This document shows, piece after piece, positions 119 to 33,116 of a stretch of DNA of 63,377 bases. A model generated the notes under the pieces. The model did not search any database. It worked only from the letters and a program-made list of their open reading frames with translations, and had not been told where the DNA came from. This DNA comes from an uncultured Muribaculaceae bacterium. Its GTDB lineage: Bacteria; Bacillota_I; Bacilli_A; RF39; UBA660. Location of the stretch: the NCBI GenBank assembly GCA_964486215.1, contig CAZALI010000004.1, positions 1 through 63,377 of the forward strand. Reading direction: 5' to 3'. Position 1 is the stretch's first letter. Every line of letters begins with the position of its first letter. A program made the position numbers and the translations under genes.

Positions 119-222
119 CTCGGTGACAATAGCTAGTGGGTCACACCTGTTCCCATCCCGAACACAGAAGTTAAGCCACTAAACGCTGACAATAGTGTAT
201 GCTAAGATAAGAAGTTGCCGAG
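119..222 (+). rRNA. rrf: 5S rRNA (short, about 104 nt)
   Basis: Contains the universal 5S core GTCACACCTGTTCCCATCCCGAACACAGAAGTTAAGCC. The terminal helix I pairs 5' CTCGGTGAC with 3' GTTGCCGAG. It sits directly after the 23S tail. Confidence 0.85.
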
Positions 223-3789: not shown

Positions 3790-3862
3790 GTTTTATACTT
3801 ATTTTTTTTATAAAAAAATGTTATAATAAAATCGATTAAAGTAGAAAAGAAGGTTGGATAGT

Positions 3863-5050
3863 ATGTTGAAATCACAAGTTGGTTATAGTACTAATATAGA
3901 TTATTATGAATCCGGTGTAGAAACAGCACAGATGGCTACTAATGAATTAAATGAACAGAAGTTAGGTTTTTTATTTACGTCATGCCAAGATGATATTAAG
4001 GAAGTAATAAGAGGTATTAGAACAAAGACTTCTGTACCTTTAATTGGTTGTACTAGTAGTGGAGGTTTGATTGTTCCAGATAAAATTGTGACTGGTGAAA
4101 AAAGCTTTGCTGGTATGTTAGTATTAAATGATAATGAAATGACTATTGGTATGGCTTGTCATGAAGCTGGTAGAAATCCTAGAGCTATTGGTAGAAAAGT
4201 TGCTATAGACGCTGTAAGTGATGCTAAAACTACTCGTGCTCCTTCATATTTTTACATGGTTGCTTCTCCTAAAGAAGAGGAAGAATATCTTCAAGGTATT
4301 CAAGATGTTATAGGAAGAGTTCCAATGTTTGGAGGATCAGCTGCTGATGACGATATGAGTGGTAATTGGAAAATAATTTGTAATGATAAAGTCTTTTCTG
4401 ATGGTGTAGCTGTAGCTTTCTTCTATACTGATAATGAAATAGCAACATCATTCACAGGAGATTATCGTGAGACTAACAATGTTGGTATTATTACTAAAGT
4501 AGAAGATAATCGTGAACTTGTTGAAATAAATGGTGAAGGTGCTCTAAAACAATATGCCGAGTGGACTAATAAAAATATAGAGGATCTACAAGGAAGTAAT
4601 CTTTTAAAATCATCTGTAATGCATCCACTAGGAGTAAAAGATCCAATAGGTAATATTACTCTTATTAGATATCCAGTATTTGGAGATGATAAAGGAACAA
4701 GAACTATTAAAGATGATACTATTAAATTAGGTAATAAAGTAGTAGAGTCAACAGCTATTATGGAATTAGAGACAACTGTTGATGAGTTAATTGATTCAGC
4801 AACTGATATGATAAAAGATGTTAAGAATAAATTATATAATGATCCAGTAGCTTATGTTTTTATTCACTGTGCTGGAAGAAAGTTAGCTATAGGTGATAGG
4901 TTAGAAGAAGTACATGAACTTATGGTTAGAGAAACTAAAGGAGTACCATTCATCACAACGTTTGCTTTTGGTGAATATGGTTATGATGAGCATTCAGCTA
5001 ATATGTGTGGTGGATTAATGCTTTCATTCACAGCTTTTGGAAAAGAATAA
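3863..5050 (+). CDS. Stand-alone FIST-type sensory domain protein (FIST_N + FIST_C-like)
   Basis: Soluble protein of about 395 aa with GCTSSGG, FGGSAADD and a terminal FGEYG, blocks that recall FIST N/C domains. Family call is from memory of motifs only. An extended -10 (TGTTATAAT, 3819..3827) lies upstream. Confidence 0.65.
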   Translation: MLKSQVGYSTNIDYYESGVETAQMATNELNEQKLGFLFTSCQDDIKEVIRGIRTKTSVPLIGCTSSGGLIVPDKIVTGEKSFAGMLVLNDNEMTIGMACHEAGRNPRAIGRKVAIDAVSDAKTTRAPSYFYMVASPKEEEEYLQGIQDVIGRVPMFGGSAADDDMSGNWKIICNDKVFSDGVAVAFFYTDNEIATSFTGDYRETNNVGIITKVEDNRELVEINGEGALKQYAEWTNKNIEDLQGSNLLKSSVMHPLGVKDPIGNITLIRYPVFGDDKGTRTIKDDTIKLGNKVVESTAIMELETTVDELIDSATDMIKDVKNKLYNDPVAYVFIHCAGRKLAIGDRLEEVHELMVRETKGVPFITTFAFGEYGYDEHSANMCGGLMLSFTAFGKE

Positions 5051-5057
5051 TTATTAT

Positions 5058-5093
5058 AAAATAACTGTTAAATTTAACAGTTATTTTTATTTT
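5058..5093 (+). terminator. Rho-independent terminator after the FIST gene
   Basis: 10-bp perfect stem ATAACTGTTA / TAACAGTTAT with loop AATT, followed by TTTTATTTT. Confidence 0.8.
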
Positions 5094-5124
5094 GTGGTAT
5101 TATATATTTAGAGCGAGTAAAAAC

Positions 5125-5153
5125 TTGCAATAATGATAAGTATATGGTATAAT
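5125..5153 (+). promoter_or_regulatory. Sigma-A type promoter of the adhesin-sortase operon
   Basis: TTGCAA (-35, 5125..5130), 17-bp spacer, TATAAT (-10, 5148..5153); 29 nt upstream of the start codon. Confidence 0.6.
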
Positions 5154-5181
5154 ATAGCCATTTGTTAGGGGGAATAATATT

Positions 5182-6654
5182 ATGAAATCATTATTCAAGA
5201 AATTATCTATTATCATCGTAACTTTACTAGTATTCATAGGTGGTAATTATGGTGTAAAAGCCGTTAGTAATACTATTCATTTAGCTGATGCTAAAGCTGT
5301 TCCAAGATATATTGATGGACTAAAATTTAGCATTAAGAGAATGACAAACGGAGAGTATTTATATTGTCTACACAGAAATGCAAATACTGCTCAAAATGTA
5401 ACTGCTAAACTAGATGGAAGAACAGACAATGGAGTTTCATATATTTTAGCTAATGGTTATCCAGTAAAAAGTATAACTGGTAATAGAACTAAGGACTATT
5501 ACATAACACAAACTGCTGTATGGTGGTACTTAGATGATGCAAAAGGTGCATCTAATTTAAGCAGAGAATTTAAGAGTCAATCTGGTACTATGATTAATCA
5601 TATTAAGAGATTAGTAAGAGGAGCTAAAAAAGCTGGTTCTCCAAGAAGAACTGCTAATATTAAATTAACAACAAAGAGTACTGAAATGATTCTAAAAGAT
5701 GGATATTATGTTTCAGAAGTAATTAAAGGTAATGCTACTGATAATTATAAAGTAACAGTATCAGGACCTGCTGGTACTAAAGTTGTTGACTTAAATGGTA
5801 ATGTTAAAAATACTTTTAAACCAAAAGAAGGATTTAGAGTAAAAGTACCATTAAGTGAAGCTAAGAAAGAAAACGTTAAAGTAACAGCTAAGACAACTGC
5901 AACTTATTATCAAGCATATAGATATTATCCAACAGATAAGTCAATGCAAAAAGTAGCACGTTTAGTTAAAGAATCAAATTCTAAAGCATCTAATTTAGGA
6001 TTAACTATTTCCAAGTCTGTACTTAGAGTTAATAAATTAGATGAAGATACTAAACAAAATATAGCAGGAGCAACAATAGCTTTGAAAGATGCTAGTGGAA
6101 AAACTATTACTACATGGGTTTCTACTAGTGATACTCATATAATTCAAAACTTACAAAATGGTACATATACTATTGAAGAAGTAAATGCACCTGATGGATA
6201 TAAGAAATCAGAAACAACAAAGACCTTTACTATAAATGATAAAGTTAGAGATGTTACAATAAACTTATATAATAAAGCTGAAGAAAGTGTTGTAACAATC
6301 ACAAAAGTTGATAAAGAAACAAATGCACCACTAGCTGGAGCTGTTCTAGTTGTAAAAGATGCAAATGGTACTGAAATTGAACGTTTCACTACTACAACAG
6401 AAGCACATGTAATTAAAGATTTAGAAGCAGGTACATATACTGTAGAAGAAGTAGAAGCACCTGCAGGATATATGAAGAATGAAACAGGAGTTGAATTCAC
6501 TATCGATAGTGAGCACTTAACTCATCAAATAACAATAGAGAATTATAAAGAAGTAGTAGTTCCAGATACATCAACTGCTAGTACAATTATTCTTACTATA
6601 TTAGGTATTGTCATTACTATCGTAGGACTTAATTTCATTAAGAGATATGCTTAA
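5182..6654 (+). CDS. Surface adhesin: signal peptide, thioester domain (TED), 2 CnaB/SpaA-type domains, C-terminal sorting signal
   Basis: TED Cys context YLYCLHRN and the TQxA(I/V)W motif ITQTAVWWY. Two roughly 90-aa repeats (KLDEDTKQNIAGATIALKD...NGTYTIEEVNAPDGY and KVDKETNAPLAGAVLVVKD...AGTYTVEEVEAPAGY) are typical of CnaB/prealbumin-fold stalk domains. The tail is VPDTS, a hydrophobic stretch, then KRYA. Confidence 0.9.
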   Translation: MKSLFKKLSIIIVTLLVFIGGNYGVKAVSNTIHLADAKAVPRYIDGLKFSIKRMTNGEYLYCLHRNANTAQNVTAKLDGRTDNGVSYILANGYPVKSITGNRTKDYYITQTAVWWYLDDAKGASNLSREFKSQSGTMINHIKRLVRGAKKAGSPRRTANIKLTTKSTEMILKDGYYVSEVIKGNATDNYKVTVSGPAGTKVVDLNGNVKNTFKPKEGFRVKVPLSEAKKENVKVTAKTTATYYQAYRYYPTDKSMQKVARLVKESNSKASNLGLTISKSVLRVNKLDEDTKQNIAGATIALKDASGKTITTWVSTSDTHIIQNLQNGTYTIEEVNAPDGYKKSETTKTFTINDKVRDVTINLYNKAEESVVTITKVDKETNAPLAGAVLVVKDANGTEIERFTTTTEAHVIKDLEAGTYTVEEVEAPAGYMKNETGVEFTIDSEHLTHQITIENYKEVVVPDTSTASTIILTILGIVITIVGLNFIKRYA

Positions 6655-7306
6655 TTATAATAAAAATAAACGCGAGATTTCACCTAGTTTAGTTGCCATT
6701 ATTGGTGCACTAATTATCATGCTAGGTGGATTCTTTATTTCTTACAACTACATTGAAAGTAAGAAAGTTCTAGCCTATGATTATGTATCTACAGAATTCT
6801 TTTCTAAAAATGAAGAGACTAAACAAATAATAACTGAATCTGAAGATACTAAAATACGTGAAGCTGTAACTGGAGAAGAATCAGATGTAGTTACAAATGA
6901 TTTTATAGGTTATTTAACAATACCTAAAATTAATCTACGTAAAGGTTTTCTTGATAGAAGATCAACAGAAAATGACGTAGAAAAGAATATATATGTAGTA
7001 GAAGGATCTACTTATCCTGATGTTAAAAGAGGTAATTTAATAATAGCTGGTCACTCTGGTACTGGATGGAAAGCTTTCTTTAATGACTTATATAAGTTAG
7101 GAAAAGGAGACTATGCTATTGTTTCATACAAAGGAAAGAAATATACATATTCTATTACAAGTATTTATAAACAATCTAAGACAGGTAAAATTGCTATCTA
7201 TAGGAACTATGATAAGACAACCCTAACATTAATTACTTGTACTAATTATGATAGTAAAACACAAACTGTCTATGTTGCAGAATTAATTTCTACAGAAAAT
7301 GAATAA
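6647..7306 (+). CDS. Sortase-family transpeptidase (atypical: no Arg after the catalytic Cys)
   Basis: N-terminal TM anchor, LIIAGHSG (catalytic His) and TLTLITC (catalytic Cys). Its start overlaps the adhesin stop by 8 nt. Confidence 0.85.
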   Translation: MLNYNKNKREISPSLVAIIGALIIMLGGFFISYNYIESKKVLAYDYVSTEFFSKNEETKQIITESEDTKIREAVTGEESDVVTNDFIGYLTIPKINLRKGFLDRRSTENDVEKNIYVVEGSTYPDVKRGNLIIAGHSGTGWKAFFNDLYKLGKGDYAIVSYKGKKYTYSITSIYKQSKTGKIAIYRNYDKTTLTLITCTNYDSKTQTVYVAELISTENE

Positions 7307-7328
7307 TTAAATAAATGGGGGTGAAGTT

Positions 7329-8216
7329 ATGACAAGGATGTCACTAGGTGAGGAATTAGACTTGCTATTTAAAGTGTGTCTTCAAAACAAGTTATCTATA
7401 GTAATATTCTTACTTCTTGCTATTGTAGCTTATCTATTTATTACTACTAATAAAAGAAATGCTAATGTTACTAAAAAGACTTATATTATTGCCTATGTTG
7501 TAATAATAGTTTTCGTACTTGTAACTTTTAGTACACACATTGCTAAATTTTTTGATTATATGATAAATAATTTCTTTATAGCTGTTTATTTTCCTAATTT
7601 AGCCATATACTTCGCAGCCATTATAGTATCAAATATAATTGCTTTTATAAGTGTATTTAATTTTGATATAAATAGAATAATACGTAATATTAATATAGTT
7701 GTTTATAGTATTATATCTTTTCTCTTCTTCTTGTTAATAGGTGTTATTTCTGATAGAGGTCTAGATATTTATAGTCAACATTCTATATATGCGAATGATA
7801 AAGCTCATGCTTTAATAGAACTTACAAGTATTATCTTTATGATATGGATTATATTCTTAATTACTTATTATGCAATAAGAAGATATCAAGAAAAGAAACA
7901 AGATAAAGAAAAAGTTGTTAAGAAGAAAATACCTAATAATATTATTGAGGTTGATAGTCCAAAGATAGCCTTAAAAGTAACAGAACCACCAAAGTTAGAT
8001 GAAGAAGAAATAAATGCTAAAGTAGCTGAAGAAGTAGACAAGAGAGTAAAAACAAAATTAGCTGAGAATAAAGCTTTAGATAATATCTTAAGTAGAGAAG
8101 ATTATGTACTATTACTAAAAATATTAAAAGAGAAAAAAGAAGAAAAAACAAAAGATATAATAGATGATCAGAGTAGTTTAATGAAATTAGACGAAATGTA
8201 TAAAAGTGTACGATAA
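7329..8216 (+). CDS. Polytopic membrane protein with Lys/Glu-rich cytoplasmic tail (unknown function)
   Basis: Five to six hydrophobic segments followed by a charged, coiled-coil-like C-terminus. Strong SD GGGGGTGA. Last gene before the operon terminator. Confidence 0.75.
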   Translation: MTRMSLGEELDLLFKVCLQNKLSIVIFLLLAIVAYLFITTNKRNANVTKKTYIIAYVVIIVFVLVTFSTHIAKFFDYMINNFFIAVYFPNLAIYFAAIIVSNIIAFISVFNFDINRIIRNINIVVYSIISFLFFLLIGVISDRGLDIYSQHSIYANDKAHALIELTSIIFMIWIIFLITYYAIRRYQEKKQDKEKVVKKKIPNNIIEVDSPKIALKVTEPPKLDEEEINAKVAEEVDKRVKTKLAENKALDNILSREDYVLLLKILKEKKEEKTKDIIDDQSSLMKLDEMYKSVR

Positions 8217-8232
8217 TACACTTTTTTTTTAC
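8202..8232 (+). terminator. Rho-independent terminator of the adhesin-sortase operon
   Basis: Stem AAAAGTGTA / TACACTTTT overlapping the stop codon, followed by a long T-run. Confidence 0.7.
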
Positions 8233-8272
8233 TAGTTTTTAGACTATAATTAATATGAGTGGAGGTAATACT

Positions 8273-8977
8273 ATGGAGTATAAAATCACAGGTGGTAATT
8301 TACCAGTTGTCAGATGCAAATTAGAAAAAGGTGAAACTATTCATTGTGAATCAGGTGGTATGTCTTGGATGGATAATACCTTTAAAATGGATACTAATAC
8401 TGGAGGAGCTAAGACTTTCTTCTCTAAGTTTGTCACAGCTGAAAAATTAATGCGTAATAAATATACTGCTGAAGAAGATGGTGAAATAGCTTTTGCTAGT
8501 TGTTTTCCAGGATCTATTGGAGCTATGGAAATAAAAGAAGGAGAAACACTAATTGCCCAAGATAGTGCTTATTTAGCTGATTATGGTAATATCTCTATGT
8601 CTATTTTCTTCCAAAAGAAAATAGGAACTGGTCTTTTTGGTGGAAAAGGATTTATCATGCAAAAATTCGTAGGTGAGGGAACTGTTTTTCTTGAATTTGA
8701 TGGATCAGTTACTGAATATGAATTAGCTGAAGGTGAAAAGAAAATTATTGATACTGGTTATTTAGTTGCTATGGAAGGATCATGTAGTATGGATATTACT
8801 ATGATTAAAGGCGTTAAAAATATTTTCTTTGGTGGAGAAGGTCTTTTCAATACTACTGTAACTGGACCTGGAAAAATTTATATTCAATCAATGCCTATAT
8901 CTAAAGTAGCTAATAAAATGTATTACTATATGCCAGGAAAAACAACCACAACTTATACAAATACATCAGAAGAATAG
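8273..8977 (+). CDS. AIM24 / TIGR00266-family protein
   Basis: MEYKITGGNLPVVRCKLEKGETIHCESGGMSWM... matches the characteristic N-terminus and length of the AIM24 (DUF124) family. Start moved to ATG 8273 after GGAGGT. Confidence 0.75.
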   Translation: MEYKITGGNLPVVRCKLEKGETIHCESGGMSWMDNTFKMDTNTGGAKTFFSKFVTAEKLMRNKYTAEEDGEIAFASCFPGSIGAMEIKEGETLIAQDSAYLADYGNISMSIFFQKKIGTGLFGGKGFIMQKFVGEGTVFLEFDGSVTEYELAEGEKKIIDTGYLVAMEGSCSMDITMIKGVKNIFFGGEGLFNTTVTGPGKIYIQSMPISKVANKMYYYMPGKTTTTYTNTSEE

Positions 8978-19426: not shown

Positions 19427-21466
19427 ATGAAGAAAAGATTAATAATATTTTTACCATTAATAATTGCTATCACAGTCTTCGTACTAGTATATAGATATTA
19501 TAATAAAGAAGATAAGACTACTACTTTAACTATCAAAGAAAAAAGATGGGTAGAAGATAATAAAGATACTGCCTATGATTTTGAAGTTATTAATGATTAC
19601 CCATTATATGGAATAGATGGAAAAGGAGTATTTTTTAACTTTATTAAAGACTTTGAAGATAATATTGGTATAGATTTTAATGAAATACCATATTCTAAAA
19701 TAACATCTCCTAAAAACAAAGATTATCGTATTAGAATTCTAGATAAAGACAAAGATCTATCTAAAGATGATTTAAAGATTTTTGATGATTACTACGTAGT
19801 TATAGGTAAGACTTATCAAAGAATAAACCATATAAAAGATATGAAAAATCTAAATTTAGGTATTCTCAGTAGTGATAGTAAAGATATTAGTTATTACTTA
19901 AAGAGTGGATCTAATTTATCATATACTACTTATAATTCTATAGCTGAAGTATATGCAGCTCTAGATAAAGGCGAAGTTAATATGATAGTAGTTCCAAATA
20001 TAATGTATTTAAACTATACTATTGAAACTAATAAGTATCATATAAATTATTTCTTAACTGAAATGAGTAAACAAGTAGTATTAACTTTAAGTAAAGATAA
20101 TAATGAGTTAAATGAAATAGTACGTAAGTACTATAAGAAGTGGAAATTAACTAAATACGTTAAAGAATATAATAAAGAGTATTTAAACTATTATATAGAA
20201 AACAATAATATATCTGCTAAAACATTAGATAATTTAATATCTAAAAACTATGTATATGGTTATGCTGAAAATGAGCCATATGAAGCTAAAGTAAATAATA
20301 AGATGGCTGGTATTGCAGGAGAGTATATTGATAGGGCATCTCGTTTATCAGGTATCAACTTTAAGATTAAGAAATTTAAAACAAAAAAAGACTTAAAAGA
20401 AGCTATAGATAGGGGAGAAGTAGATATCTACTTTGACTACTATAACTACAATAATAATAAGTATTTAGCTACTATATCTCCATTTATTGAAGATTATGTC
20501 GTCTTAGGTAAAGAAAAAGATAATCATGTAGTAACATCATTTGAAAGTCTAAGAGGACAAAAAGTAGCTATGTTACAAGAAGATTCTTTATACAATTACT
20601 TTGAGAATAACTCTCGTACTAAGATAAGTACTTATCCTAATATTCATGATTTAGTAAAGAAATCTGATACTAAATTATTAATAGTAGATAATGAAGTATA
20701 TTCTCATTATCAAAATAATAAATTCTCTAAATATCAATTATTATATAAAGATACTATGATGAATGATTATAAATTCATGGTTAAAAAGAATAATAAAGAG
20801 TTCTATGATCTATTTAATTATATTATTAATACTAACTCTTATTATAACTATCGTAATAGTGGATTAAATAACTTACATGCATCACTTCTAGCTACTAGTA
20901 CTATGAGAGATGCCTATATAATTATATTAATACTTATATTTGCTCCAATTATTTTAATAACACTTATTTATTTATTCTTAAAGTATAAACATAAACTTAA
21001 AAAGATTAAGATAACTGATAGACATAAATATACAGATATGTTGACATCTCTAAAGAATAGGAACTATTTAAATGCTAAAATACCAGAATGGGAAGATTGC
21101 AAAGTATTCCCACAAGCAATAGTTATAGTAGATTTAAATAATGTTAAATACGTAAATGATAATTATGGTCATTCTGCAGGAGATGACTTAATAGTTAAAG
21201 CTGCCGGAGTACTAGTAAATACTCAATTAGAAAATAGTGAAATTATTCGTACAGATGGTAATGAATTCTTAATTTACCTAGTAGGCTATAGTGAAAAACA
21301 AGTAGCTACATATACTAAGAAATTATCTAAAGAAATGAAGTCACTTCCTCATGAATTTGGCGCAGCTATTGGCTTCAGTATGATTACTGATGATATAAAA
21401 ACACTTGATGATACAATTAATGAAGCAACTCTAGAAATGATTACAAATAAAGAAGAATATAAATAG
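19427..21466 (+). CDS. Membrane sensor: extracytoplasmic tandem solute-binding-like region, TM, degenerate GGDEF domain
   Basis: N-terminal TM, an extracellular part of about 470 aa, a second TM (IIILILIFAPIILITLIYLF), then a GGDEF fold (SLKNRNYL, DLNNVKYVNDNYGHSAGD). The signature reads DGNEF (21254..21268) instead of GG(D/E)EF. Confidence 0.8.
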   Translation: MKKRLIIFLPLIIAITVFVLVYRYYNKEDKTTTLTIKEKRWVEDNKDTAYDFEVINDYPLYGIDGKGVFFNFIKDFEDNIGIDFNEIPYSKITSPKNKDYRIRILDKDKDLSKDDLKIFDDYYVVIGKTYQRINHIKDMKNLNLGILSSDSKDISYYLKSGSNLSYTTYNSIAEVYAALDKGEVNMIVVPNIMYLNYTIETNKYHINYFLTEMSKQVVLTLSKDNNELNEIVRKYYKKWKLTKYVKEYNKEYLNYYIENNNISAKTLDNLISKNYVYGYAENEPYEAKVNNKMAGIAGEYIDRASRLSGINFKIKKFKTKKDLKEAIDRGEVDIYFDYYNYNNNKYLATISPFIEDYVVLGKEKDNHVVTSFESLRGQKVAMLQEDSLYNYFENNSRTKISTYPNIHDLVKKSDTKLLIVDNEVYSHYQNNKFSKYQLLYKDTMMNDYKFMVKKNNKEFYDLFNYIINTNSYYNYRNSGLNNLHASLLATSTMRDAYIIILILIFAPIILITLIYLFLKYKHKLKKIKITDRHKYTDMLTSLKNRNYLNAKIPEWEDCKVFPQAIVIVDLNNVKYVNDNYGHSAGDDLIVKAAGVLVNTQLENSEIIRTDGNEFLIYLVGYSEKQVATYTKKLSKEMKSLPHEFGAAIGFSMITDDIKTLDDTINEATLEMITNKEEYK

Positions 21467-22322: not shown

Positions 22323-24373
22323 ATGAAAAGAATAAAACTTAAATTAAAAAGATTTATAAATAAAACTAAATCTTCTCTACGTAGAATAAAAGAAGAAGAA
22401 CTAATTAAAAAATATTTTAAAGAAAATACTTTATTTTTAGTATTCATACTTATAAATGTAATAAATTCTACTATGTTAAGACTATTTTGTATGCATACTG
22501 TAGAGAATTTATTATCATTTAGAGCTATTATAGGAGATGCTTTAGTAGTAGTATTAATAGGATCATTTGGTTACTTATTAAAACCCAAGAATAGACCATA
22601 CTATTACTTTGGATTTACTTGTTTCTTCACAGCTATATGTACTATAAATTCTATTTATTATACATTCTATACGTCTTTTGCTTCTCTTTCTATGTTAGGC
22701 TTAGTTCAGTATATAGGAGATGTAGGAGATGCCGTTGTAGAAAATGTTTTCCAATTAAAAGATGTTGTTTATATGTTTGCTCCTATAACAATGTTATTAG
22801 TAAACAGAAAATTAGCTCATAAAAACTATTTTAAAAAAGTAGAAGTAAAATCAACTAGAAAGAAGAAGATGTTAACGTCATTGGGTATAGCTGGAGTATT
22901 AGCTATTATCTTCTTCGCAACTATGACTTCAGTTGATATCTCTCGTATTGTAAAACAGTGGAATAAAGAAAATATTGTTATGAGATGGGGTATATATATC
23001 TATCAAGGTAATGATATAATTGCTTCACTTCAACCAAAAATAAATTCTATGTTTGGTTATGATAGAGCTAAAATGAATTTCGAAGAGTACTTTAAAGCAA
23101 AAGAAAAACCAAAATCTAATGAATATACTAATATCTTTAAAGGAAAAAATATCTTAGTAATACATGCTGAGAGTATGATGACTAATGCTATGAGTTTAAA
23201 GTTCAACAATAAGGAAGTAACTCCTAACTTGAATAAGCTAGCGTCTGGCGGAATGTTCTTCTCTAATTTTTATTCTCAAGTAAGTGTAGGTACTTCGTCT
23301 GACAGTGAATTAACTTCTACTACGTCATTACTCCCAACAAAATCAGGCACAGCTTTTGTTTCATATGCAGATAGAACTTACTCATCTAGTATTTCATTAT
23401 TAGATGACATGGACTATTATACATTCGCTATGCATGCCAATAATGGTACATTCTGGAATAGAAAAATGATGCATAAGTCTTTAGGCTATAAGAGATTATA
23501 TGATAAGGCTGATTATGAGGTAACTAAAGAAACAACTATTGGACTAGGTTTAAGTGATAAAGAATTCTTTAAACAATCTATTCCAAAACTACAAAAGATT
23601 AATGAGAAACATAAGAATTGGTATGGCCTTATGATTATGTTATCTAATCATACACCATTCTCTGATGTTGAAAAATATGGAGATTTTGATGTTAATATAA
23701 AAGAAACAGTCACAAATCCTGATGGAATAACAACAGAAAAAGTATATCCATATATGGAAGGTAGAAAACTAGGTAATTACTTCAAATCTCTTCACTATGC
23801 TGATGAAGCATTAGGTGAATTTATGACAGAGTTAGATGAAGCTGGATTACTAAAAGATACAGTAGTTGTTCTATATGGAGATCATGATGCTAGACTTCCA
23901 AGAAAAGATTATAATTTACTATATAATTATGATAAAGAAAAAGATGAATTATTAGATGAAAATGATCCAAACTACAAGAATATGATAATTATAAGTATGA
24001 ATTAGGTAGAAAAGTACCATTTATTATCTGGACTAAAGATATGAAAGATACAGATCTAAATAAAGAGTACAAGAATGTCATGGGTATGTATGATGTAGTC
24101 CCAACTCTAGGTAATATGTTTGGTTTCTACAATAAATACTCTTTAGGACATGATATTTTTGATATAAAGAGTAATAATATTGTTGTATTTCCAAGTGGAA
24201 ACTGGCTAACAAATAAAGTATATTATAATTCTCAAAAAGGAGAAGCATATCCACTCACAACAGAAGCTATATCTCAAGAAGAAATAATATCTAATACTGA
24301 ATATACTAATAAATTATTAGATGTATCAAATGATATTATAGTATTTGATTTACTTAAGGAGGAAAAGAAATGA
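22323..24373 (+). pseudogene. LtaS-family (lipoteichoic acid synthase-like sulfatase) gene interrupted by a frameshift
   Basis: ORF 22323..24005 carries 5 TM segments and the sulfatase core (ILVIHAESMM, VGTSSDSEL, LSNHTPF, VLYGDHD). The missing C-terminal part (..YELGRKVPFIIWTKDMKDTD...) continues in another frame, which is open from 23966 and includes ORF 24041..24373. Confidence 0.75.
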
Positions 24374-25023: not shown

Positions 25024-25036
25024 TCTTCTTTTTTTT
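25009..25036. terminator. Bidirectional terminator between convergent genes
   Basis: Stem AAGAAGAT / ATCTTCTT flanked by an A-run and a T-run, lying between and over the stop codons of the 24370 (+) and 25035 (-) genes. Confidence 0.6.
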
Positions 25037-27023
25037 ATGGCTCAATTGGTTCATCTTTTACACAAGTATTATTAGTCCATGTTCCACCTTGTTCTTCACA
25101 TATTTCTTGCTCTGTTTTAACAGGCGTTTCTTCTTTTTGCTCTTCTTGCTTTGGTACAATAACAGGTTCAGGATTTGTCTGTTGCGTACCAGATAGGGTA
25201 AGTGTAACAGTACCAGCTCTAGATATATCTGTACCAGCTGAAACGCTTTGTCTTACAACTGTTCCACCATTACCTACAAATACAACGCTAATACCATGGT
25301 TATTAGCATATCTTCTAGCTTGATCTTCTGTGTCACCTATAAAGTTAGGAATAACACCAGCATTCTTTTTAGCTGTATCAGAATCACTCAAGTCATAAGA
25401 ACTAGCATATGGACCTTTTCCAATAACTTTCTTTTCATATGGATTATTAATAGAGAAACTAAATGTTTTAATATTCTTAGCTTTCTTTTTACCTAAATTA
25501 GTCTTCATAGCATCCATAACATCTTGTTTACTATTTAAGTTAGGTATGTAATCATATAGATTCATTCTCATTCTACTATCATAAATCATCATACCAACAC
25601 CATCTAAATATAATTGATCAATATTTATAATATCACTATCTTCAGTAATAGTACTCTTCTTCATAATATCTTTAGCTATATTATAGAAAGATAATATTTG
25701 TTTAGTAGTTAAGTTGGTATCTAGACTATTACTTATAGTATTAAGTATTTCCATAAATGTACCAACATTTTTAATTGTTTTAGTTTTATTAGCTAGGGCT
25801 CTTACTAACTCTTGTTGATGAGCAGCTCTACCAAAATCACCATCAGCAAGTTGTTTTCTATCTCTAGCAAATACTAATGCTTCTTCACCTTTTAATGTTC
25901 TTCTACCAGGTTGAATACATACTTCACCAGTTCTACTAGAGTTATCAGTACATAACTGTTTAGGAACATCAACTTCAACTCCTCCAACAGCATCTACTAA
26001 TTTAACTAAACCTTTAAAGTTAATCTTAGCATAATAATCAATATTTATATCAAAGTATTCTTCTATAGTATTAATCATACAATCAGTACCATATCCAGCA
26101 GCATGTGTAATCTTATTTTTCTCTTTACCAGGCCAGCAAGCAATAGGTACATAAGAATCTCTAGGTATAGATAACATAGTAGCATTAAGTGTCTTAGGAT
26201 TAAACGTTAATAATATTAATGTATCTCCATTCGCAATAGCATTCTTATCTAATTTCTCAGCTGTAGAATCAATACCCATAAGTAACATTGTGAATGGTTC
26301 TTTAATAGATTTACCAGATGATTCAGTCTCACTCTTAGAAGTAGAAGACTTTAATAATTTCTTGCTCTTAGATACGATTATTCTTGTATCATCTTCAATA
26401 CTTTCAAACATAGGTATAGTATTAAACATATCTTTATAATTATCAGGTAAGAATGCTGCATCTATCTTTTCATCATATAAATCAGCAATTATAGATGTAT
26501 AATCATCATACTTAACAAGTTTATTATTATCATCTAAATCATGTTCTTTAATAATCTCTTTAGGAATAATATATCCATCAGGAGACTTTTTATTATTTAA
26601 TATAGCTATATCATAATCTTTAATATCATCAATGTCTTTAGCTTCATTCTTACTTAGTACTATTAAATCACTAGTATAAGTAACATATTTCTTATTTATA
26701 CCACTAATAAGACTATATCCATAGAATATTCCAATAGATAGAGCTATAGACATAATAGAGTATAGTATTAAGAATACGATATATAATCTTCTTTTCTTTT
26801 TATTTTTATGTTTCTTAATCTTACTACAAATTTTCTTAGTATAAAAAACACATAGTAAAGAAATAAATGCCAGTACTCCAATAACTATATATCTAATAGT
26901 ATTTTCTATATCACTAAGTAAATATATCTCATACATAGCATATAAACTACATACAACAGCAAATACTGTTAATATCTTTAACAGTAATGACAATGATTTT
27001 TTATTATAACTTTCTTTTCCCAT
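25035..27023 (-). CDS. LytR-CpsA-Psr (LCP) family glycopolymer ligase with C-terminal PASTA domain
   Basis: N-terminal TM segments and the LCP core (FTMLLMGIDS, LSIPRDSYVPI, KINFKGLVKLVDAVGGVEVDV, GEEALVFARDR). A C-terminal PASTA-like module follows (IPNFIGDTEDQARRYANNHGISVVFVGNGGTVVRQSVSAGTDISRAGTVTLTLSG). Start set at ATG 27023 after GGAGG. Confidence 0.85.
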   Translation of the reverse strand: MGKESYNKKSLSLLLKILTVFAVVCSLYAMYEIYLLSDIENTIRYIVIGVLAFISLLCVFYTKKICSKIKKHKNKKKRRLYIVFLILYSIMSIALSIGIFYGYSLISGINKKYVTYTSDLIVLSKNEAKDIDDIKDYDIAILNNKKSPDGYIIPKEIIKEHDLDDNNKLVKYDDYTSIIADLYDEKIDAAFLPDNYKDMFNTIPMFESIEDDTRIIVSKSKKLLKSSTSKSETESSGKSIKEPFTMLLMGIDSTAEKLDKNAIANGDTLILLTFNPKTLNATMLSIPRDSYVPIACWPGKEKNKITHAAGYGTDCMINTIEEYFDINIDYYAKINFKGLVKLVDAVGGVEVDVPKQLCTDNSSRTGEVCIQPGRRTLKGEEALVFARDRKQLADGDFGRAAHQQELVRALANKTKTIKNVGTFMEILNTISNSLDTNLTTKQILSFYNIAKDIMKKSTITEDSDIINIDQLYLDGVGMMIYDSRMRMNLYDYIPNLNSKQDVMDAMKTNLGKKKAKNIKTFSFSINNPYEKKVIGKGPYASSYDLSDSDTAKKNAGVIPNFIGDTEDQARRYANNHGISVVFVGNGGTVVRQSVSAGTDISRAGTVTLTLSGTQQTNPEPVIVPKQEEQKEETPVKTEQEICEEQGGTWTNNTCVKDEPIEP

Positions 27024-27181
27024 TAATATTCCTCCATGCAAACATATATATTATATCAAAATAATCTCTTATTATCAAAATTAGTATAGTTATATTATAA
27101 ATGATTATCTAATAAATTAGAATGAACAAGTGCTAATTATTAAGTATTTACAGTAAAACAAGTAAAGAAAAAGAACTATCA

Positions 27182-27451: not shown

Positions 27452-30400
27452 GTGAAGAAACTATTATTAATAGCTATTTTAATTATGTCTATAACTATTA
27501 ATGTCAAGGCAACTTCTGAAACTAACTACTCCTCAAGAAGTGTATGTTCTACTTTTGAAGTAGCAGATGCGACTAGTAGTGGAGGACTTACTAAAGTTAA
27601 TTGTTATACTGACTTTAATACTGCGAAGAATGCCGTTAAAGCTACTACAAATACTAATAGAGTAATACTTACTAAAGTTGGAAGTAAGACAAGAATAATA
27701 TATGCCAACTACGGAATAGTTGACTTTAGTTATAATCCAGCTCGTACATCAAATCTTTATGAAGCAAGTAGTCTAGATACTAGACAGTATACATATCTCG
27801 ATACACTAGACACTTCTATGGCTACTGATGGAGCTTTCATTGACACTGCTTATTCTTCTAGTAAAAAAGTTTACGCTGCTAAAGTAAAGTTCTCAGGCTT
27901 TACAGGATGGATTAATACTAATGAAATAGAAATAGTTCCTCTAACCTGGGTAAAACAAACATCTTACTATACAATTAATTCTGATATAGTACATAACTTT
28001 GTAAATAGACCTCAAATGTCTCCTAGTGGATCATCATCTAGAACTATTGGACCTAAACCTACAATGTTAAGTACTGGAACATATTATTCTTATGATGGAC
28101 ATTATTTCTATACTAATAGAACTAATATGTTAAAAGACTATAAAGCTGGTAATTATAATAATTCTGTTAATAAATCTAATCCATATTATAACTACTATAT
28201 GTATTTATCTAATCATACTAAAACTAATTATTCATCAATTAATATTGATGAGTATATTAGAAATGTTTTAGGTTATACTATGGATGCTTATGGTAAGAAA
28301 GCAGAGTCTAAAACATCTAGACTATATGGAAACGGACAATTTTTCTATAATGCTCAACAACTACATGGAGCTAATGCATTACTTGCCTTAAGTTTAAGTA
28401 GAAATGAAACAGGAAATGGTACAAGTAAATTAGCTGTTCAAAAGAATAATGGTTTTGGACTTAATGCTGTAGACTCTAATCCATATGAAGAAGCAGATTG
28501 GTATGCAAGCTTCCCATCATCTATAATGGGTTTTGCATCACACTGGATTACAGATTTATATGCGAATGCTACTAAATGGCATTACTTTGGTCCACAATAT
28601 GGTAATAAAGCTATAGGTATGAATGTTAAGTATGCATCAGATATTTATTGGTCTGAAAAAATGGCTTCATTCTATTATGCTTTTGATAAATATAATGGGC
28701 TTCAAGATTATAACTATTATCAATTAGGTATAATTAAATCTCCAGTTGCCGCTAGAAGTGCTGCTAAAACTTCAGCTAAAAAGATTTATGACTATCCAGA
28801 ATATGAAGATGCAGTTGTAATAGTAGGCGAGGTAGCAGGAGAAAGTGTAGGAGGATCAACTACATGGTATAAAGTAATGAGTGATGTAAATATAGACTCT
28901 AACTATAATGCTAAATCTGGTAATTATAATTGGACTACTTATGTCTATGTACCTGCATCCTACATTCAAAAAATAAATACACCAATCTCTGGTTATAAAG
29001 CACCTAATAGTGTACCTACATATAAAGATAGTAATTATACATATGATCTATTAGTAGAAAATACTAATTTAAAACCAAGAGTTGCTAAAAGTATAAAAGA
29101 TACACCTTTCTACTATAATTCAACTCTTCAAACTAAAACAGGTAAGACATTAAAGAATAATAGATATGTTATGGTATATGCTATAGCTAAAGAAGGAAGT
29201 ACTATTAAATCATACTTAGTCACAAGTGATTACTTTAAAGATCAAAAACACTGGATAAATGCTGATGCTATTACTTTTGTAACATCTGAGTATGGTAAAG
29301 AAACAGTCACTACTGAAGCAAATGCTTATTCTTGGGTTAACTATAATACTGAAGATGTTGCTTCTACTAAGATATCTGGTAAATATACAAATTCTTATTT
29401 CCCAATTTTAGGTACTACAAAAGTAGGATCAAATACATGGTATAAAGTACCAGTAGATATAAATGGTACAGAAAGAGAATTTGGTTACACACTAGCTTCT
29501 GCTCCAGATGTAAGCATAACTAAATATAAGTATACTGCTTCTAATAATCCACCAGTAATAAATGCATCTAATAAAGAAATAAAAGTAAATACTGAATTTG
29601 ATCCAATGAATGGAGTAACCGCAACAGACGTAGAAGATAAAGATATAACAAATAAAATAACTTATACATCAACAGTTAATAATAAAGTAGTAGGTACTTA
29701 TAAAGTAACTTATAAAGTAACAGATTCTGGTAATCTAACCACTACTAAAGAGATAACTGTAAAAGTATTATCTAATGATAAACCAGTAATAAATGCTACT
29801 GATATTACTATTAGACAAAACTCTTCATTTGATCCAAAAGCTTATGCTACTGCTTATGATACAGAAGATAAAGACATTACAAATAAAATAATAGTAAAAG
29901 AAAATACTGTTAATACTAAAGTAGTAGGAGAATATACTGTAGTATATGAAGTAACTGATAGTGATAAAAATACTACTACTAAAGAAGTTAAAGTAACAGT
30001 AAGAGAAGTACCACATACTGATATTGAAAATGTAAATTTAGATGATTATGATGAAAGAGATGGAGAATTCTATCTAGAATCTCTAACTTGGAATAATAAT
30101 ACCAAGAAATTTACTATTAGTGGTTACTTAATAGTATTAAATGTTAATAATATTGATAAACAATATGCCTTAGTATTAAAAGATAAGAATAGTGATAAAT
30201 CATATAATATAGAAATAGATAGTTGGTTAGATAATACTCCATATGACTTAGGTAGTGAAAATGGTAAATCATATACTGAGTCATGGTTTAAAGGAGAAAT
30301 AGACTTAGATATTACAAATGGAGATTATGACTTATATATGTTAGGTATAAGTGATTATGATTATACTCTACAAGAAGTAAATAACTTCTTCAATAAGAAT

Positions 30401-30958
30401 ATTGCTCGTCGTGGAGAAGATAATAATCATGGTTATAACTTTAAAGTACAACAGAGAAGTAGAACTAAATCTATTGAATTATCTATAAGAGATGAACTAT
30501 ACACAACAAGTACAGCACCTACAAGTAGAAATATGGTAAATGGTTACGATGAAATAAGCTTTAAAAACAATAAATTATACATGTATGCATATTCATATGA
30601 CTTTGATGTAGCTTATAATAATAACTTAGCTATCACAAGAAAAGTAATCTTTGAAAATACTACTACGTATGAACAAAGAGTATTTGATGTAGGATGTACA
30701 AGAGGACCATTTACTCTAGAAACTCTAGATAATAAAGATAAGACCTATGCATGGTATGAAAAAGAGCTAGATATATCAAATCTACCAATAGGTAATTACA
30801 ATGTACTAGTTTATACAAAGACAGCAAATGCCGCTAACTACGATGAATTAATTGATCTATCTAAACGTCTAAATAAAGAGACAACAATAGATGATAAGTC
30901 GTATAAAATAGCTGTTAATAAAGAAAGAAATAATAGAGTAGAGCTTACTATTAAGTAA
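27452..30958 (+). CDS. Secreted multidomain peptidoglycan hydrolase (GH73 N-acetylglucosaminidase, SH3-like region, 2 Ig-like domains, unassigned C-terminal module)
   Basis: Signal peptide. GH73 block YNAQQLHGANALLALSLSRNETGNGTS...NNGFGLNAVDS with the catalytic Glu context. Two 78-aa Ig-like repeats (PVINA...DxEDKDITNKI...VGxYxVxYxVTDS). GTG start preceded by AGGAGG. Confidence 0.85.
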   Translation: MKKLLLIAILIMSITINVKATSETNYSSRSVCSTFEVADATSSGGLTKVNCYTDFNTAKNAVKATTNTNRVILTKVGSKTRIIYANYGIVDFSYNPARTSNLYEASSLDTRQYTYLDTLDTSMATDGAFIDTAYSSSKKVYAAKVKFSGFTGWINTNEIEIVPLTWVKQTSYYTINSDIVHNFVNRPQMSPSGSSSRTIGPKPTMLSTGTYYSYDGHYFYTNRTNMLKDYKAGNYNNSVNKSNPYYNYYMYLSNHTKTNYSSINIDEYIRNVLGYTMDAYGKKAESKTSRLYGNGQFFYNAQQLHGANALLALSLSRNETGNGTSKLAVQKNNGFGLNAVDSNPYEEADWYASFPSSIMGFASHWITDLYANATKWHYFGPQYGNKAIGMNVKYASDIYWSEKMASFYYAFDKYNGLQDYNYYQLGIIKSPVAARSAAKTSAKKIYDYPEYEDAVVIVGEVAGESVGGSTTWYKVMSDVNIDSNYNAKSGNYNWTTYVYVPASYIQKINTPISGYKAPNSVPTYKDSNYTYDLLVENTNLKPRVAKSIKDTPFYYNSTLQTKTGKTLKNNRYVMVYAIAKEGSTIKSYLVTSDYFKDQKHWINADAITFVTSEYGKETVTTEANAYSWVNYNTEDVASTKISGKYTNSYFPILGTTKVGSNTWYKVPVDINGTEREFGYTLASAPDVSITKYKYTASNNPPVINASNKEIKVNTEFDPMNGVTATDVEDKDITNKITYTSTVNNKVVGTYKVTYKVTDSGNLTTTKEITVKVLSNDKPVINATDITIRQNSSFDPKAYATAYDTEDKDITNKIIVKENTVNTKVVGEYTVVYEVTDSDKNTTTKEVKVTVREVPHTDIENVNLDDYDERDGEFYLESLTWNNNTKKFTISGYLIVLNVNNIDKQYALVLKDKNSDKSYNIEIDSWLDNTPYDLGSENGKSYTESWFKGEIDLDITNGDYDLYMLGISDYDYTLQEVNNFFNKNIARRGEDNNHGYNFKVQQRSRTKSIELSIRDELYTTSTAPTSRNMVNGYDEISFKNNKLYMYAYSYDFDVAYNNNLAITRKVIFENTTTYEQRVFDVGCTRGPFTLETLDNKDKTYAWYEKELDISNLPIGNYNVLVYTKTANAANYDELIDLSKRLNKETTIDDKSYKIAVNKERNNRVELTIK
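29549..30006 (+). repeat. Two tandem 234-nt coding repeats (Ig-like domains) inside the autolysin
   Basis: PPVINASNKEIKVNTEFDP...TKEITVKV and KPVINATDITIRQNSSFDP...TKEVKVTV; they are divergent at the DNA level. Confidence 0.8.
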
Positions 30959-31264: not shown

Positions 31265-31293
31265 ATAATAACACAATATGTGTAATAAATCAA
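31265..31293 (-). promoter_or_regulatory. Candidate minus-strand promoter convergent on the small peptide gene (possible antisense RNA)
   Basis: On the minus strand: TTGATT (-35, overlapping the PASTA gene stop), a 17-bp spacer, and TGT-TATTAT (extended -10). Transcription would run through two hairpins (31252..31228 and 31204..31185) to a T-run that overlaps the peptide ORF 3' end. Confidence 0.3.
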
Positions 31294-33116
31294 CTAGCTA
31301 GTACTATTGATACTGTATCACAACTACTAACAGTACCACCATCAAATCCTGATATAAAGTCTGCTGAATCATATCCATCAGCTTTTTTACAAGTCACATT
31401 TACTTTTAATCCAGAACACTTTCTAGTTAAAGAACTTCTTAAAGCACTCGCAGCACTATTACAATTATTATATTGTTCTAATACAGAATATATTTCAGCT
31501 GGTCTAAAACTACAGCTATTACATGTTGGAGTAGGAGTAGAAGATCCTCCTCCTGAAGAATGATTATTATTACCACTATTACTACTATTAGAAGAAGGTT
31601 TATTATTAGTATCTCTTCGCTCTTCAACATTCTTGCCTTTACTTACAGTAATAGTAACAGTTGTATTTTCACTTATCTTAGAACCACTTCTAATAGATTG
31701 AGAAATAACCTTACCTTCACTAACTTCACTACTACTTCTATAAACAATACTATATTTAATATTATTATCTTTTAATATAGATATAGCTTTTTCTCTACTT
31801 AATCCAACTACATCAGGCATCTTTATTTGATTACCATTAGATATAATAACTTTAATAACATCGCCACTCTTAATTACTTCTCCTTCTTTAACAGAGAATT
31901 TAATTATTTCACCTACAGCAACTTTATCACTAAATTCATGTTCTTCTTCGTATTTAACATTATGTTTATTAGCCCATTCATAGAATTCAGCTAAATCTTT
32001 AAAATGTTTCATTCTTAGTTTACCAAGAGATACATATACTTTAATAGTATCACCACTAGTTACTATATCTCCTTTTTTCTTATCACTACCTATAACAGTA
32101 TTTTTCTTAATCTTATCATCATACTTTTCTTCAAATTCTACTTTTAAATGATTCTTAATAATCCATTTAGTAACTTCTTTAATAGATTTACCTTTTAATT
32201 CTATAACTTTAATCTTTTTACCACGACTAACAGTAACAGTAATTTCTTTATCATCAATCTTAATTTCAGTACCAGGCTTTTCAGATTGTTTCATCACAAT
32301 ACCTTTTTTGTATTTATCAGAATAATCATCTTTAAATTTATATTTAACATGATGTTCTTCTAAATAGAATTTAGCTCTGAATTTACTCATACCAACAAGC
32401 TCTCTTAAACTAACACTTTCAAAGTCTAATTCTTCTCCATAAGAGAAAGTAATCTTAATATTATCACTTCTCTTCATAGTACCTTTACGACTTTGTTCTA
32501 TAACTGTTCCTTCTTTACTTTTGCTACTCTTAAACTTAATATCTACATTTCCTAAGAAATTCTCTTCTACAAATGAAATAACTTCTTCTTTTTTCCAACC
32601 ACTCATATCAGGAATTACTATTTCTTTACTTGGACTAGGTCCATCACTAATAGCAATCTTTAAAGTATCAATATCTTTTAAAGCTTCACCTTCACGAACA
32701 CTCTGTGTAATAACAAAGTTTTCTTTAACCATATCACTATATTCATATTCTTCTTCTAATTTTATATTATTTTTCACAGACCAATTAACTACATAGTCAA
32801 TACTTTTACCACTTAAATTAATCATTCTAGTATTCTTTATACTAATAATATTATTTGTATTTAGAATATTAAAAGTATAAAAAGCTATTAATAAAAGACT
32901 ACTCATAAAGACAATACTCTTACTTTTAGCTTTAAACTTAATAGAATATACTACATAAAATAATGTGAATAATACTAAAATAAAACTATTTATAAGTTCA
33001 TTAATATCTTTATCAATAATAATATTTCCTACAAAGTAAGCTACACTTAATAAGAAAGTTATAACTAAAAATATATCCACAATTATATGTTTATTACTTT
33101 TATTTTTCTTAGGCAT
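31290..33116 (-). CDS. Membrane protein with about six PASTA domains and a Cys-rich C-terminal domain; no kinase or transpeptidase domain
   Basis: Three N-terminal TM segments. Six repeats of about 65 aa; the last is canonical PASTA (MPDVVGLSREKAISILKDNNIKYSIVYRSSSEVSEGKVISQSIRSGSKISENTTVTITVSKG). An S/N/G-rich linker is followed by a tail of about 75 aa with 7 Cys. Confidence 0.8.
   Translation of the reverse strand: MPKKNKSNKHIIVDIFLVITFLLSVAYFVGNIIIDKDINELINSFILVLFTLFYVVYSIKFKAKSKSIVFMSSLLLIAFYTFNILNTNNIISIKNTRMINLSGKSIDYVVNWSVKNNIKLEEEYEYSDMVKENFVITQSVREGEALKDIDTLKIAISDGPSPSKEIVIPDMSGWKKEEVISFVEENFLGNVDIKFKSSKSKEGTVIEQSRKGTMKRSDNIKITFSYGEELDFESVSLRELVGMSKFRAKFYLEEHHVKYKFKDDYSDKYKKGIVMKQSEKPGTEIKIDDKEITVTVSRGKKIKVIELKGKSIKEVTKWIIKNHLKVEFEEKYDDKIKKNTVIGSDKKKGDIVTSGDTIKVYVSLGKLRMKHFKDLAEFYEWANKHNVKYEEEHEFSDKVAVGEIIKFSVKEGEVIKSGDVIKVIISNGNQIKMPDVVGLSREKAISILKDNNIKYSIVYRSSSEVSEGKVISQSIRSGSKISENTTVTITVSKGKNVEERRDTNNKPSSNSSNSGNNNHSSGGGSSTPTPTCNSCSFRPAEIYSVLEQYNNCNSAASALRSSLTRKCSGLKVNVTCKKADGYDSADFISGFDGGTVSSCDTVSIVLAS

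Follow-up and report, generated by a model that had tools for sequence, protein, structure and literature searches.

A chromosomal locus of an uncultured gut bacterium encoding a thioester adhesin, a polytopic membrane protein and a sortase with glutamine aligned to the catalytic arginine

In this study, we report the analysis of a three-gene unit in a 63,377-nucleotide stretch of DNA from an uncultured gut bacterium of the GTDB lineage RF39 (GenBank assembly GCA_964486215.1, contig CAZALI010000004.1, positions 1 to 63,377); this whole stretch is referred to below as the window. The unit encodes, in order, an adhesin with a thioester domain (TED) and a VPDTS-type sorting signal (gene 1), a membrane-anchored sortase (gene 2) and a polytopic membrane protein (gene 3). 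All sortases have been stated to share a His-Cys-Arg catalytic triad (PMC13257024, PMC11231552), and in gene 2 the position of the Arg is aligned with a glutamine, Gln206. The three open reading frames (ORFs) had been proposed in a first-pass annotation made from the sequence, and ORF calls placed them at the same coordinates. Genes 1 and 2 overlap by 8 nt (6647..6654), which suggests coupled expression; gene 3 begins after a gap of 22 nt and has a strong ribosome binding site (RBS), GGGGGTG, 6 nt before its ATG. The features of the unit, and other window genes referred to below, are collected in Table 1.

Table 1. Features of the adhesin-sortase-membrane protein unit and wall-related genes of the window
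Feature	Position	Strand	Remarks
Hairpin, terminator-like, with T run	5061..5093	+	ATAACTGTTAAATTTAACAGTTAT then TTTTTATTTT; after the upstream FIST-domain gene; read from sequence
Candidate sigma-70-type promoter	5074..5103	+	TTAACA-18-TATTAT with TG extension; consensus scan 10/12
Candidate sigma-70-type promoter	5125..5153	+	TTGCAA-17-TATAAT with TG extension; consensus scan 10/12
Gene 1 RBS	5168..5175	+	AGGGGGAA
Gene 1, thioester adhesin	5182..6654	+	490 aa; ORF
Gene 1 signal peptide	residues 1-27
Gene 1 TED	residues 60-149		Pfam PF08341, 37.9 bits against a cut-off of 22
Gene 1 thioester Cys62	5365..5367		in YLYC62LHRN
Gene 1 thioester Gln110	5509..5511		in ITQ110TAVWW
Gene 1 CnaB/SpaA stalk domains	residues ~279-366 and ~371-456		Pfam SpaA/CnaB-type, 116 bits
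Gene 1 C-terminal sorting signal	6550..6651	+	E457-V-V-V460-P-D-T463/S464 (slash, predicted cut), membrane helix residues 468-486, basic tail KRYA
VPDTS motif	residues 460-464 = 6559..6573	+	in C-terminal KEVVVPDTS
Gene 2, Gln-type sortase	6647..7306	+	219 aa; ORF
Gene 2 membrane anchor	residues 13-35		N-terminal
Gene 2 catalytic domain	from ~residue 83
Gene 2 His136	7052..7054		LIIAGH136SG
Gene 2 Lys178	7178..7180		family-specific
Gene 2 Cys198	7238..7240		TLITC198
Gene 2 Gln206	7262..7264		aligned position of the catalytic Arg
Gene 3, membrane partner	7329..8216	+	295 aa; ORF
Gene 3 membrane helices	residues ~21-38, 45-66, 91-110, 116-143, 157-185		model
Gene 3 conserved motif	7554..7598	+	D76-Y-M-x-N-N-F-F-x-A-x-Y-F-P-N90; on short interfacial helices
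Gene 3 C-terminal helical hairpin	residues 225-294 = 8001..8210	+	after a variable charged linker
Hairpin, terminator-like	8202..8232	+	9 bp (AAAAGUGUA / UACACUUUU), then nine T; sequence and fold; overlaps gene 3 stop codon
LtaS-like enzyme	22323..24005
LCP glycopolymer-peptidoglycan transferase	25035..27041	-
Peptidoglycan-hydrolase-domain protein	27452..30958
PASTA-domain protein	31290..33116	-	608 aa
Choline-binding-repeat protein	37644..41051		1,135 aa
TarF-like enzyme	41136..42428

Gene 2 was recognised as a sortase by the Pfam Sortase model (PF04203, 70.8 bits against a cut-off of 26.6) and by the generic NCBIfam model TIGR01076 (57.3 bits, cut-off 39.35). The sortase His and Cys, in LIIAGHSG and TLITC, and the lack of any Arg in the 21 residues that follow Cys198 had been pointed out in the first-pass annotation and were confirmed in the sequence; the protein ends with these residues and has no C-terminal helix. 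The residue standing in for the Arg had been given as Gln or Thr. Three alignments select the Gln. Gln206 lies opposite the catalytic Arg in a pairwise alignment with Clostridium perfringens SrtD (4d70), and opposite the Arg of Bacillus anthracis SrtA (2kw8) in a profile of 66 diverse relatives (KRYVVAGDL against kqtvviael). As Arg-type comparator for the third, a multiple alignment, a C. perfringens plasmid class D sortase was used, taken from a 5.7-kb stretch of only sortase and surface-protein genes; here His is paired with His, Cys with Cys, Gln206 with Arg and Leu213 with Leu. One ungapped profile alignment to 4d70 is off by one residue in its register. The register is fixed by the Cys198-Gln206 spacing of 8, identical to that of Cys208 and Arg216 in Streptococcus pyogenes SrtA (PMC11231552), and by a Glu-Leu pair at +6/+7 from Gln206, which matches a Glu-Leu pair equally far from the Arg in the plasmid class D sortase. 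At the sequence level, Gln206 is thus the equivalent of the catalytic Arg, and Thr205 and Thr207 were ruled out for this position by the alignment register.

A structure model of the sortase was built from 28 close homologues and, having a mean pLDDT of 60, was used only for fold and strand order. Weak as the model is, it matched many sortase structures in Foldseek with a probability of 1.00, with 3rcc and 2kw8 at the top. One strand (192-197) precedes Cys198 and the next spans residues 205-218, and a strand starting at 205 is as expected if the Arg-equivalent opens beta8.

Conservation of the glutamine was followed at several depths. A word-indexed search gave 2,510 sortase relatives, the best 120 of which (64-100% identical) all read TC-T-N-x-D-x-x-[T/S]-Q-[T/S]-[V/I]-Y. 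An exhaustive search of 50%-identity cluster representatives gave 2,482 relatives; among the 150 best, almost every one that extends to the C-terminus has the Gln, down to ~35% identity and across at least ~140 clusters. In the alignment of the 66 diverse relatives, which extends down to ~31% identity, position 206 is Gln in 63, Asn in two and Tyr in one; His136 and Cys198 are invariant (66/66), and TLxTC is kept to the same depth. Finally, residue 206 is Gln at all 85 chromosomal loci inspected, encoded by CAA at 58 and by CAG at 27, and the use of both codons for an unchanging residue indicates that selection acts on the amino acid. The aligned sequences delineate a Gln-type sortase clade under clear purifying selection. 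A decayed pseudogene, an outcome that had been considered in the first-pass annotation, is ruled out by this conservation. By the same alignments, gene 2 belongs to a large family with Gln in place of the Arg that reviews call universal; no description of Arg-less sortases was found in literature searches.

Two basic positions were also noted. Lys178, which sits at the Pro of the canonical V-x-P-x-D at the start of the beta6-beta7 loop, is Lys in 65 and Arg in one of the 66 relatives, and might contact a conserved Glu at P7 of the sorting signal. The position of Arg186 is basic in 86% of the same 66 members. Two cluster representatives, P0370 and P0382, have the sequence TC-LG-x-D-R-Q-L-V-V, in which the conserved Gln is immediately preceded by an Arg, and as judged from this arrangement may be intermediates of an Arg-to-Gln switch.

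Classification with sortase-class hidden Markov models, as had been suggested in the first-pass annotation, was performed, and every NCBIfam class model scored far below its cut-off: class C (NF033745) 63.5 bits against 160, the LPxTATN-type SrtD model 60.4 against 140, class D 46.4 against 165, class E 40.9 against 160 and class F 26.7 against 166, the class D models used being NF033746 and NF058671. No class A or class B model was among the NCBIfam matches at E values up to 0.1. Judged by its profile matches, gene 2 is a member of the sortase superfamily, but it does not show the canonical triad and falls within none of the classes tested. Among solved structures, enzymes of classes C, D and A come closest, all about equally distant; by sequence, the top PDB match is the enterococcal Ebp class C sortase. 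No Gln-type sortase was found in PLSDB plasmids, where the closest plasmid-borne sortase is that of C. perfringens, annotated as class D, at 34% identity.

Gene 1 had been read as a thioester adhesin with the Cys, the Gln and two CnaB-type stalks, and each of these elements was recovered. Besides the Pfam TED and SpaA matches (Table 1), gene 1 aligns with BaTIE (PDB 6fwv) at an E value of 4.9e-30, and Cys62 and Gln110 pair with the thioester Cys and Gln of BaTIE. On this homology gene 1 is a secreted class II thioester-domain (TIE-type) adhesin, for which thioester and isopeptide bonds are predicted.

The VPDTS motif, followed by a membrane stretch and KRYA, was found as the first-pass annotation had placed it, and the candidate substrate peptide of the gene 2 sortase would be KEVVVPDTSTAS. 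Across 77 distinct homologous adhesins the signal has the consensus E(P7)-V(P6)-x-V(P4)-P-[D/N]-T, with Glu at P7 in 65, Val at P6 in 63, Val at P4 in 76, Pro at P3 in 77, Asp or Asn at P2 in 75 and Thr at P1 in 77. The residue after the Thr (P1') is Ala in 39, Ser in 13, Gly in nine, Asn in eight, Asp in six and Lys in two. The motif follows the last stalk strand after only ~6 residues.

The motif does depart from LPxTG, but it is less exotic than had been implied, as VPDTS differs by one residue from class D signals of Bacillus subtilis, LPDTS of YhcR and LPDTA of YfkN (PMC11231552), and lies near VPDTG, which the literature search identified as the known signal of pneumococcal RrgC, handled by Arg-type sortases. 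Val at the first motif position therefore needs no Gln enzyme by itself. None of VPNTG, VPDTA, VPDTS and VPNTA was found as a sorting signal in the searched literature. Homologous operons were also collected for co-variation, a further check put forward in the first-pass annotation, and in two distant subfamilies the Gln-type sortases are accompanied by VPxT signals. In both of these, as sampled, the P4 residue that occurs with such a sortase is Val; the free residue after the Thr belongs to the RF39 branch only.

Gene 3 had been described as polytopic with a charged tail. Its model, built from a 75-homologue alignment (pLDDT 83), agrees, giving five membrane helices and a tail that ends in a helical hairpin. 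The positive-inside rule would place the tail and the basic loop that follows helix 1 in the cytoplasm, with the conserved motifs facing outward. No PDB structure matched the fold of the model (best E 2), and the gene 3 copy of the window matched no Pfam or NCBIfam family, including DUF6057 (PF19529, cut-off 29.8 bits). DUF6057 is matched by nine of the 75 homologues, with a best E value of 7.9e-10; two traced matches, with 30 further homologues scanned, scored 13.7 and 15.7 bits over profile positions 78-300 of 569. With low confidence, gene 3 can be proposed as a sortase-associated scaffold.

A scan of species-representative genomes gave 575 sortase relatives, and the best 80 were inspected for context. 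In nearly all of these 80, the adhesin gene is followed by the sortase gene, gene 3, in some cases an AIM24-family gene, and then pcrA and ligA, and the recurrence of the gene trio in ~80 species genomes means that the unit as a whole is not explicable by chance. The same gene order was found in two further lineages with sortases 49-53% identical and signals VPFTG and VPNTG, one of the two adhesins being named for Candidatus Onthousia. Relatives bear the names Candidatus Faecimonas and uncultured Tenericutes, Mycoplasma, Erysipelotrichaceae and Bacilli, and at least some of them belong to the order RF39, in which Faecimonas corresponds to the GTDB genus CAG-877 (PMC8035907).

Gene 3 lies downstream of the sortase at all 85 chromosomal loci. 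At four of the loci (L003, L004, L029 and L083) the sortase and gene 3 are kept with no adhesin gene upstream, which makes these two the constant pair and the adhesin a usual but not obligatory neighbour; the earlier notion of a sortase strictly dedicated to the adhesin was not upheld. In L003 (4306-4611, 4741-6723), a 101-aa hydrophobic membrane ORF occupies the space between the FIST and sortase genes.

A second, short-loop Gln-type subfamily, ~37% identical to the window sortase, was found at three loci (L086:2752-16645, L088 and L090) and has no gene 3. Its gene order is ParA, ParB, a ~910-aa SpaA/TED adhesin, sortase, small ORFs and a ~2,400-aa SNF2/helicase protein, and the adhesin ends in VEVPNTG, a helix and a basic tail. 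With this gene content the locus looks like a mobile element, conjugative or integrative, of gut bacteria with A+T-rich DNA. The occurrence of this subfamily beside ParA/ParB genes fits the finding that TIE adhesins encoded by mobile elements promote mating (PMC8092201). A metagenome scan with a distant Gln-type member gave one weak locus. Beside the C. perfringens plasmid class D sortase (L093:1-3078), a SpaA-type protein ends in EIVKTGSS, a helix and KKRKLS; this signal lacks the usual Pro.

On its left side, the three-gene unit is bounded by the terminator-like hairpin at 5061..5093. The promoter claimed at 5125..5153 is a good consensus match, but an equally good site lies at 5074..5103 and such sites are common in this DNA of 27% G+C, 43 having been found against 31 expected. 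Likewise, a hairpin with a U run does exist at 8202..8232, where a terminator had been claimed, but it is A+U-rich with two G-C pairs among its 9 bp, it falls under the terminator-scan threshold, and the surrounding 71-nt stretch 8190..8260 folds no better than shuffles (z-score -0.37). Two sheep-gut RNA libraries contain contigs more than 98% identical to parts of gene 1 (5127..5427 and 5806..5956), which are low-depth fragments; the contig start at 5127 lies upstream of the transcription start expected from the 5125..5153 promoter. As DNA carry-over is possible, this RNA evidence for expression is weak. An apparent RNA peak at 8102..8228 was rejected as low-complexity sequence of other organisms.

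Immediately upstream of the unit lies a FIST-domain gene with a TTG start (3854..5050), which is syntenic with the sortase unit in several relatives. The AIM24-family gene at 8255..8977, between gene 3 and pcrA, occurs only in the closest locus subgroup of the window, and its homologue in L003 ends in 16 serines. Among the wall-related genes of Table 1, the 608-aa PASTA protein resembles PknB-type kinases in their PASTA repeats only (profile positions 335-563) and may be kinase-less. The 1,135-aa protein has repeats of choline- and glucan-binding type and adjoins a glycosyltransferase/TarF-like block, which suggests choline-decorated teichoic acids. A GGDEF (diguanylate cyclase) domain, unusual for a small-genome RF39-like bacterium, was seen at the C-terminus of a 679-aa protein (19427..21466). 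Most RF39 members are predicted to be walled, with peptidoglycan of the meso-diaminopimelate type (PMC10868615), and a wall-less host is ruled out here by the wall genes of the window. No other sortase or sorting signal was found within the 63 kb.

The unit is most likely a surface-display module, inherited vertically, of a gut bacterium with a wall and a small genome; the closest named relatives of this bacterium, Candidatus Faecimonas, belong to the order RF39. We infer its catalytic activity, cleavage site and acceptor, and the roles of Gln206 and gene 3, as follows. The gene 1 product would be exported by Sec, its thioester 'warhead' folding on two isopeptide-type stalks and its C-terminal helix holding the adhesin in the membrane. 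The membrane-anchored sortase would recognise the extended E-V-x-V-P-[D/N]-T signal and cut after Thr463 by means of Cys198, assisted by His136, and the adhesin would be handed to an amine of a peptidoglycan precursor, probably the meso-diaminopimelate side chain. The carboxamide of Gln206 would most likely form hydrogen bonds, both to hold the substrate in place and to stabilise the oxyanion. Gene 3 would most likely serve as a membrane scaffold and could position the sortase, the C-terminal helix of the substrate or the acceptor.

We consider it probable, though far from certain, that gene 2 is an active transpeptidase in which the amide of Gln206 takes over the hydrogen-bonding job of the Arg. 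Several points weigh against this interpretation. In sortases that have been studied, mutation of the Arg to Ala abolishes most of the activity (PMC13257024). The side chain of Gln falls two to three atoms short of that of Arg and may not extend to the same groups, and the invariant Lys178 and the common Arg186 could supply charge from elsewhere. At ~6 residues, the linker that leads from the last stalk domain to the cleavage site is short for a protein spanning the wall, and the four adhesin-less loci mean that the adhesin is not the only possible substrate. In favour of the interpretation, replacement of Arg197 in Staphylococcus aureus SrtA by uncharged citrulline (Bentley et al. 2008) reportedly left activity in place, which would agree with a hydrogen-bonding role open to an amide; literature searches for this experiment gave no match.

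The alternative that fares best, which we nevertheless regard as unlikely, is that the triad is functionally intact, a basic residue elsewhere in the fold (candidates, Lys178 and Arg186 in the beta6-beta7 loop) reaching the active site and Gln206 being a neutral filler. The near-invariance of Lys178 and the basic character of position 186 speak for it, as does the beta6-beta7 loop of SrtA, which is mobile and touches the sorting signal (PMC11231552). Set against this, Arg186 is not conserved family-wide, and in the model Lys178 directly follows strand 164-177, which would put it at the loop end of the beta6/beta7 hairpin, some six strand residues (~20 A, estimated) from Cys198. A neutral filler, moreover, would not stay 95% Gln with synonymous codon turnover.

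Slightly less credible is a changed chemistry, in which the signal is cleaved and the adhesin is released, or joined to lipid, teichoic acid or another protein, with gene 3 involved. The missing Arg, the freedom at P1' (A, S, G, N, D or K), the very short linker before the signal and the obligatory polytopic partner without a fold match, some homologues of which weakly match the large polytopic family DUF6057, would all agree with such a reaction. However, the wall-sorting signal of gene 1 is complete in motif, helix and basic tail, genes for wall building and wall binding are present in the window, and the ParA/ParB-linked subfamily has no gene 3, from which it follows that gene 3 is not in the core chemistry.

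It is improbable that the sortase is a dead scaffold, the adhesin being kept by its own helix or processed by a canonical sortase elsewhere in the genome. The near inactivity of Arg-to-Ala variants (PMC13257024) would be in keeping with this, but a dead enzyme would not need the invariant His and Cys or the retained TLxTC; also, V-P-x-T is near invariant in the partner adhesins, genes 1 and 2 overlap, and the window holds no second sortase or sorting signal. A pilus-type, class C-like system polymerising the adhesin is very improbable: class C gave the top NCBIfam score and the best PDB sequence match, but the score is far under its cut-off, no DP[WFY] lid motif was seen, there is a single substrate gene with no canonical YPKN pilin motif and no second pilin gene, and a C-terminal helix is lacking.

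Returning to the interpretation of gene 2 as an active enzyme using Gln206, we tentatively raise a wider proposal, for which the odds are distinctly poorer: that the Gln-type sortases may form a separate, unnamed class with a working His-Cys-Gln site and V-P-x-T specificity on thioester adhesins, which in its chromosomal RF39 form would be a two-part machine with the new-fold gene 3 presenting substrate or acceptor. If this were true, the textbook His-Cys-Arg triad would be no requirement of sortase chemistry. Inhibitor design and models of mechanism lean on the triad Arg, and the Gln-type clade is a natural test of what that residue is needed for. A Gln-type sortase would possibly be useful for protein ligation, since the signal tolerates many residues after the Thr. 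The RF39 bacteria, which are common, uncultured, small-genome gut residents, retain a covalent adhesin, together with the machinery for anchoring it, at a constant position in the chromosome, and gene 3 is a candidate sortase partner without a known fold. The system is directly testable with a short peptide, a soluble domain and a few point variants.

The known systems compared with the unit include the class D sortases B. subtilis YhcS, C. perfringens SrtD (4d70) and B. anthracis SrtD (2ln7). Gene 2 shares with class D a single N-terminal anchor, a small catalytic domain and the lack of both a lid and a C-terminal helix, and 4d70 is among its best sequence and fold matches. Class D substrates likewise resemble gene 1 in having Asp or Asn at P2 and Ala or Ser after the Thr (PMC11231552); tested against the class D pattern LP[DN]T[AS], the signal here, VP[DN]T[A/S/G/N/D], is alike at P2 and P1' and differs at P4, where Val replaces Leu (76/77), and it is extended upstream (E-V-x-V-P). 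In the enzyme, the catalytic Arg of class D is replaced by Gln and the Pro of V-x-P-x-D by Lys, and on the gene 2 side there is an obligatory polytopic partner gene. Class A sortases with a short beta7-beta8 loop (S. pyogenes SrtA, Streptococcus agalactiae SrtA 3rcc and B. anthracis SrtA 2kw8) are the top Foldseek matches; the Cys-to-Arg spacing of S. pyogenes SrtA is that of Cys to Gln in gene 2 (PMC11231552), and the gene 2 family keeps its chromosomal position across the lineage, as a housekeeping-like class A enzyme would. Unlike class A, gene 2 has no Arg and no class A model match, and where class A enzymes go with LPXTG, gene 2 overlaps the gene of a specific substrate with a VPxT-x signal.

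The pairing of sortase and gene 3 recalls the SafA-SrtA system of Actinobacteria, in which a small membrane factor is encoded beside the housekeeping sortase. The likeness lies in a membrane protein gene conserved beside a sortase gene; SafA is small, whereas the gene 3 protein combines five membrane helices with a helical hairpin that is cytoplasmic by the predicted topology, and has no detectable family. On the side of the adhesin, class II TIE proteins besides BaTIE include SaTIE, EfmTIE86 and TIE-pLS20. BaTIE (6fwv) can be aligned with gene 1 across the TED and stalk domains, Cys and Gln both being kept, but it carries LPATG after a 38-residue unfolded spacer (PMC6194298), whereas gene 1 has VPDTS after ~6 residues. 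TIE-pLS20 lacks a sorting signal and does not require a sortase (PMC8092201); gene 1, in contrast, carries its VPDTS signal.

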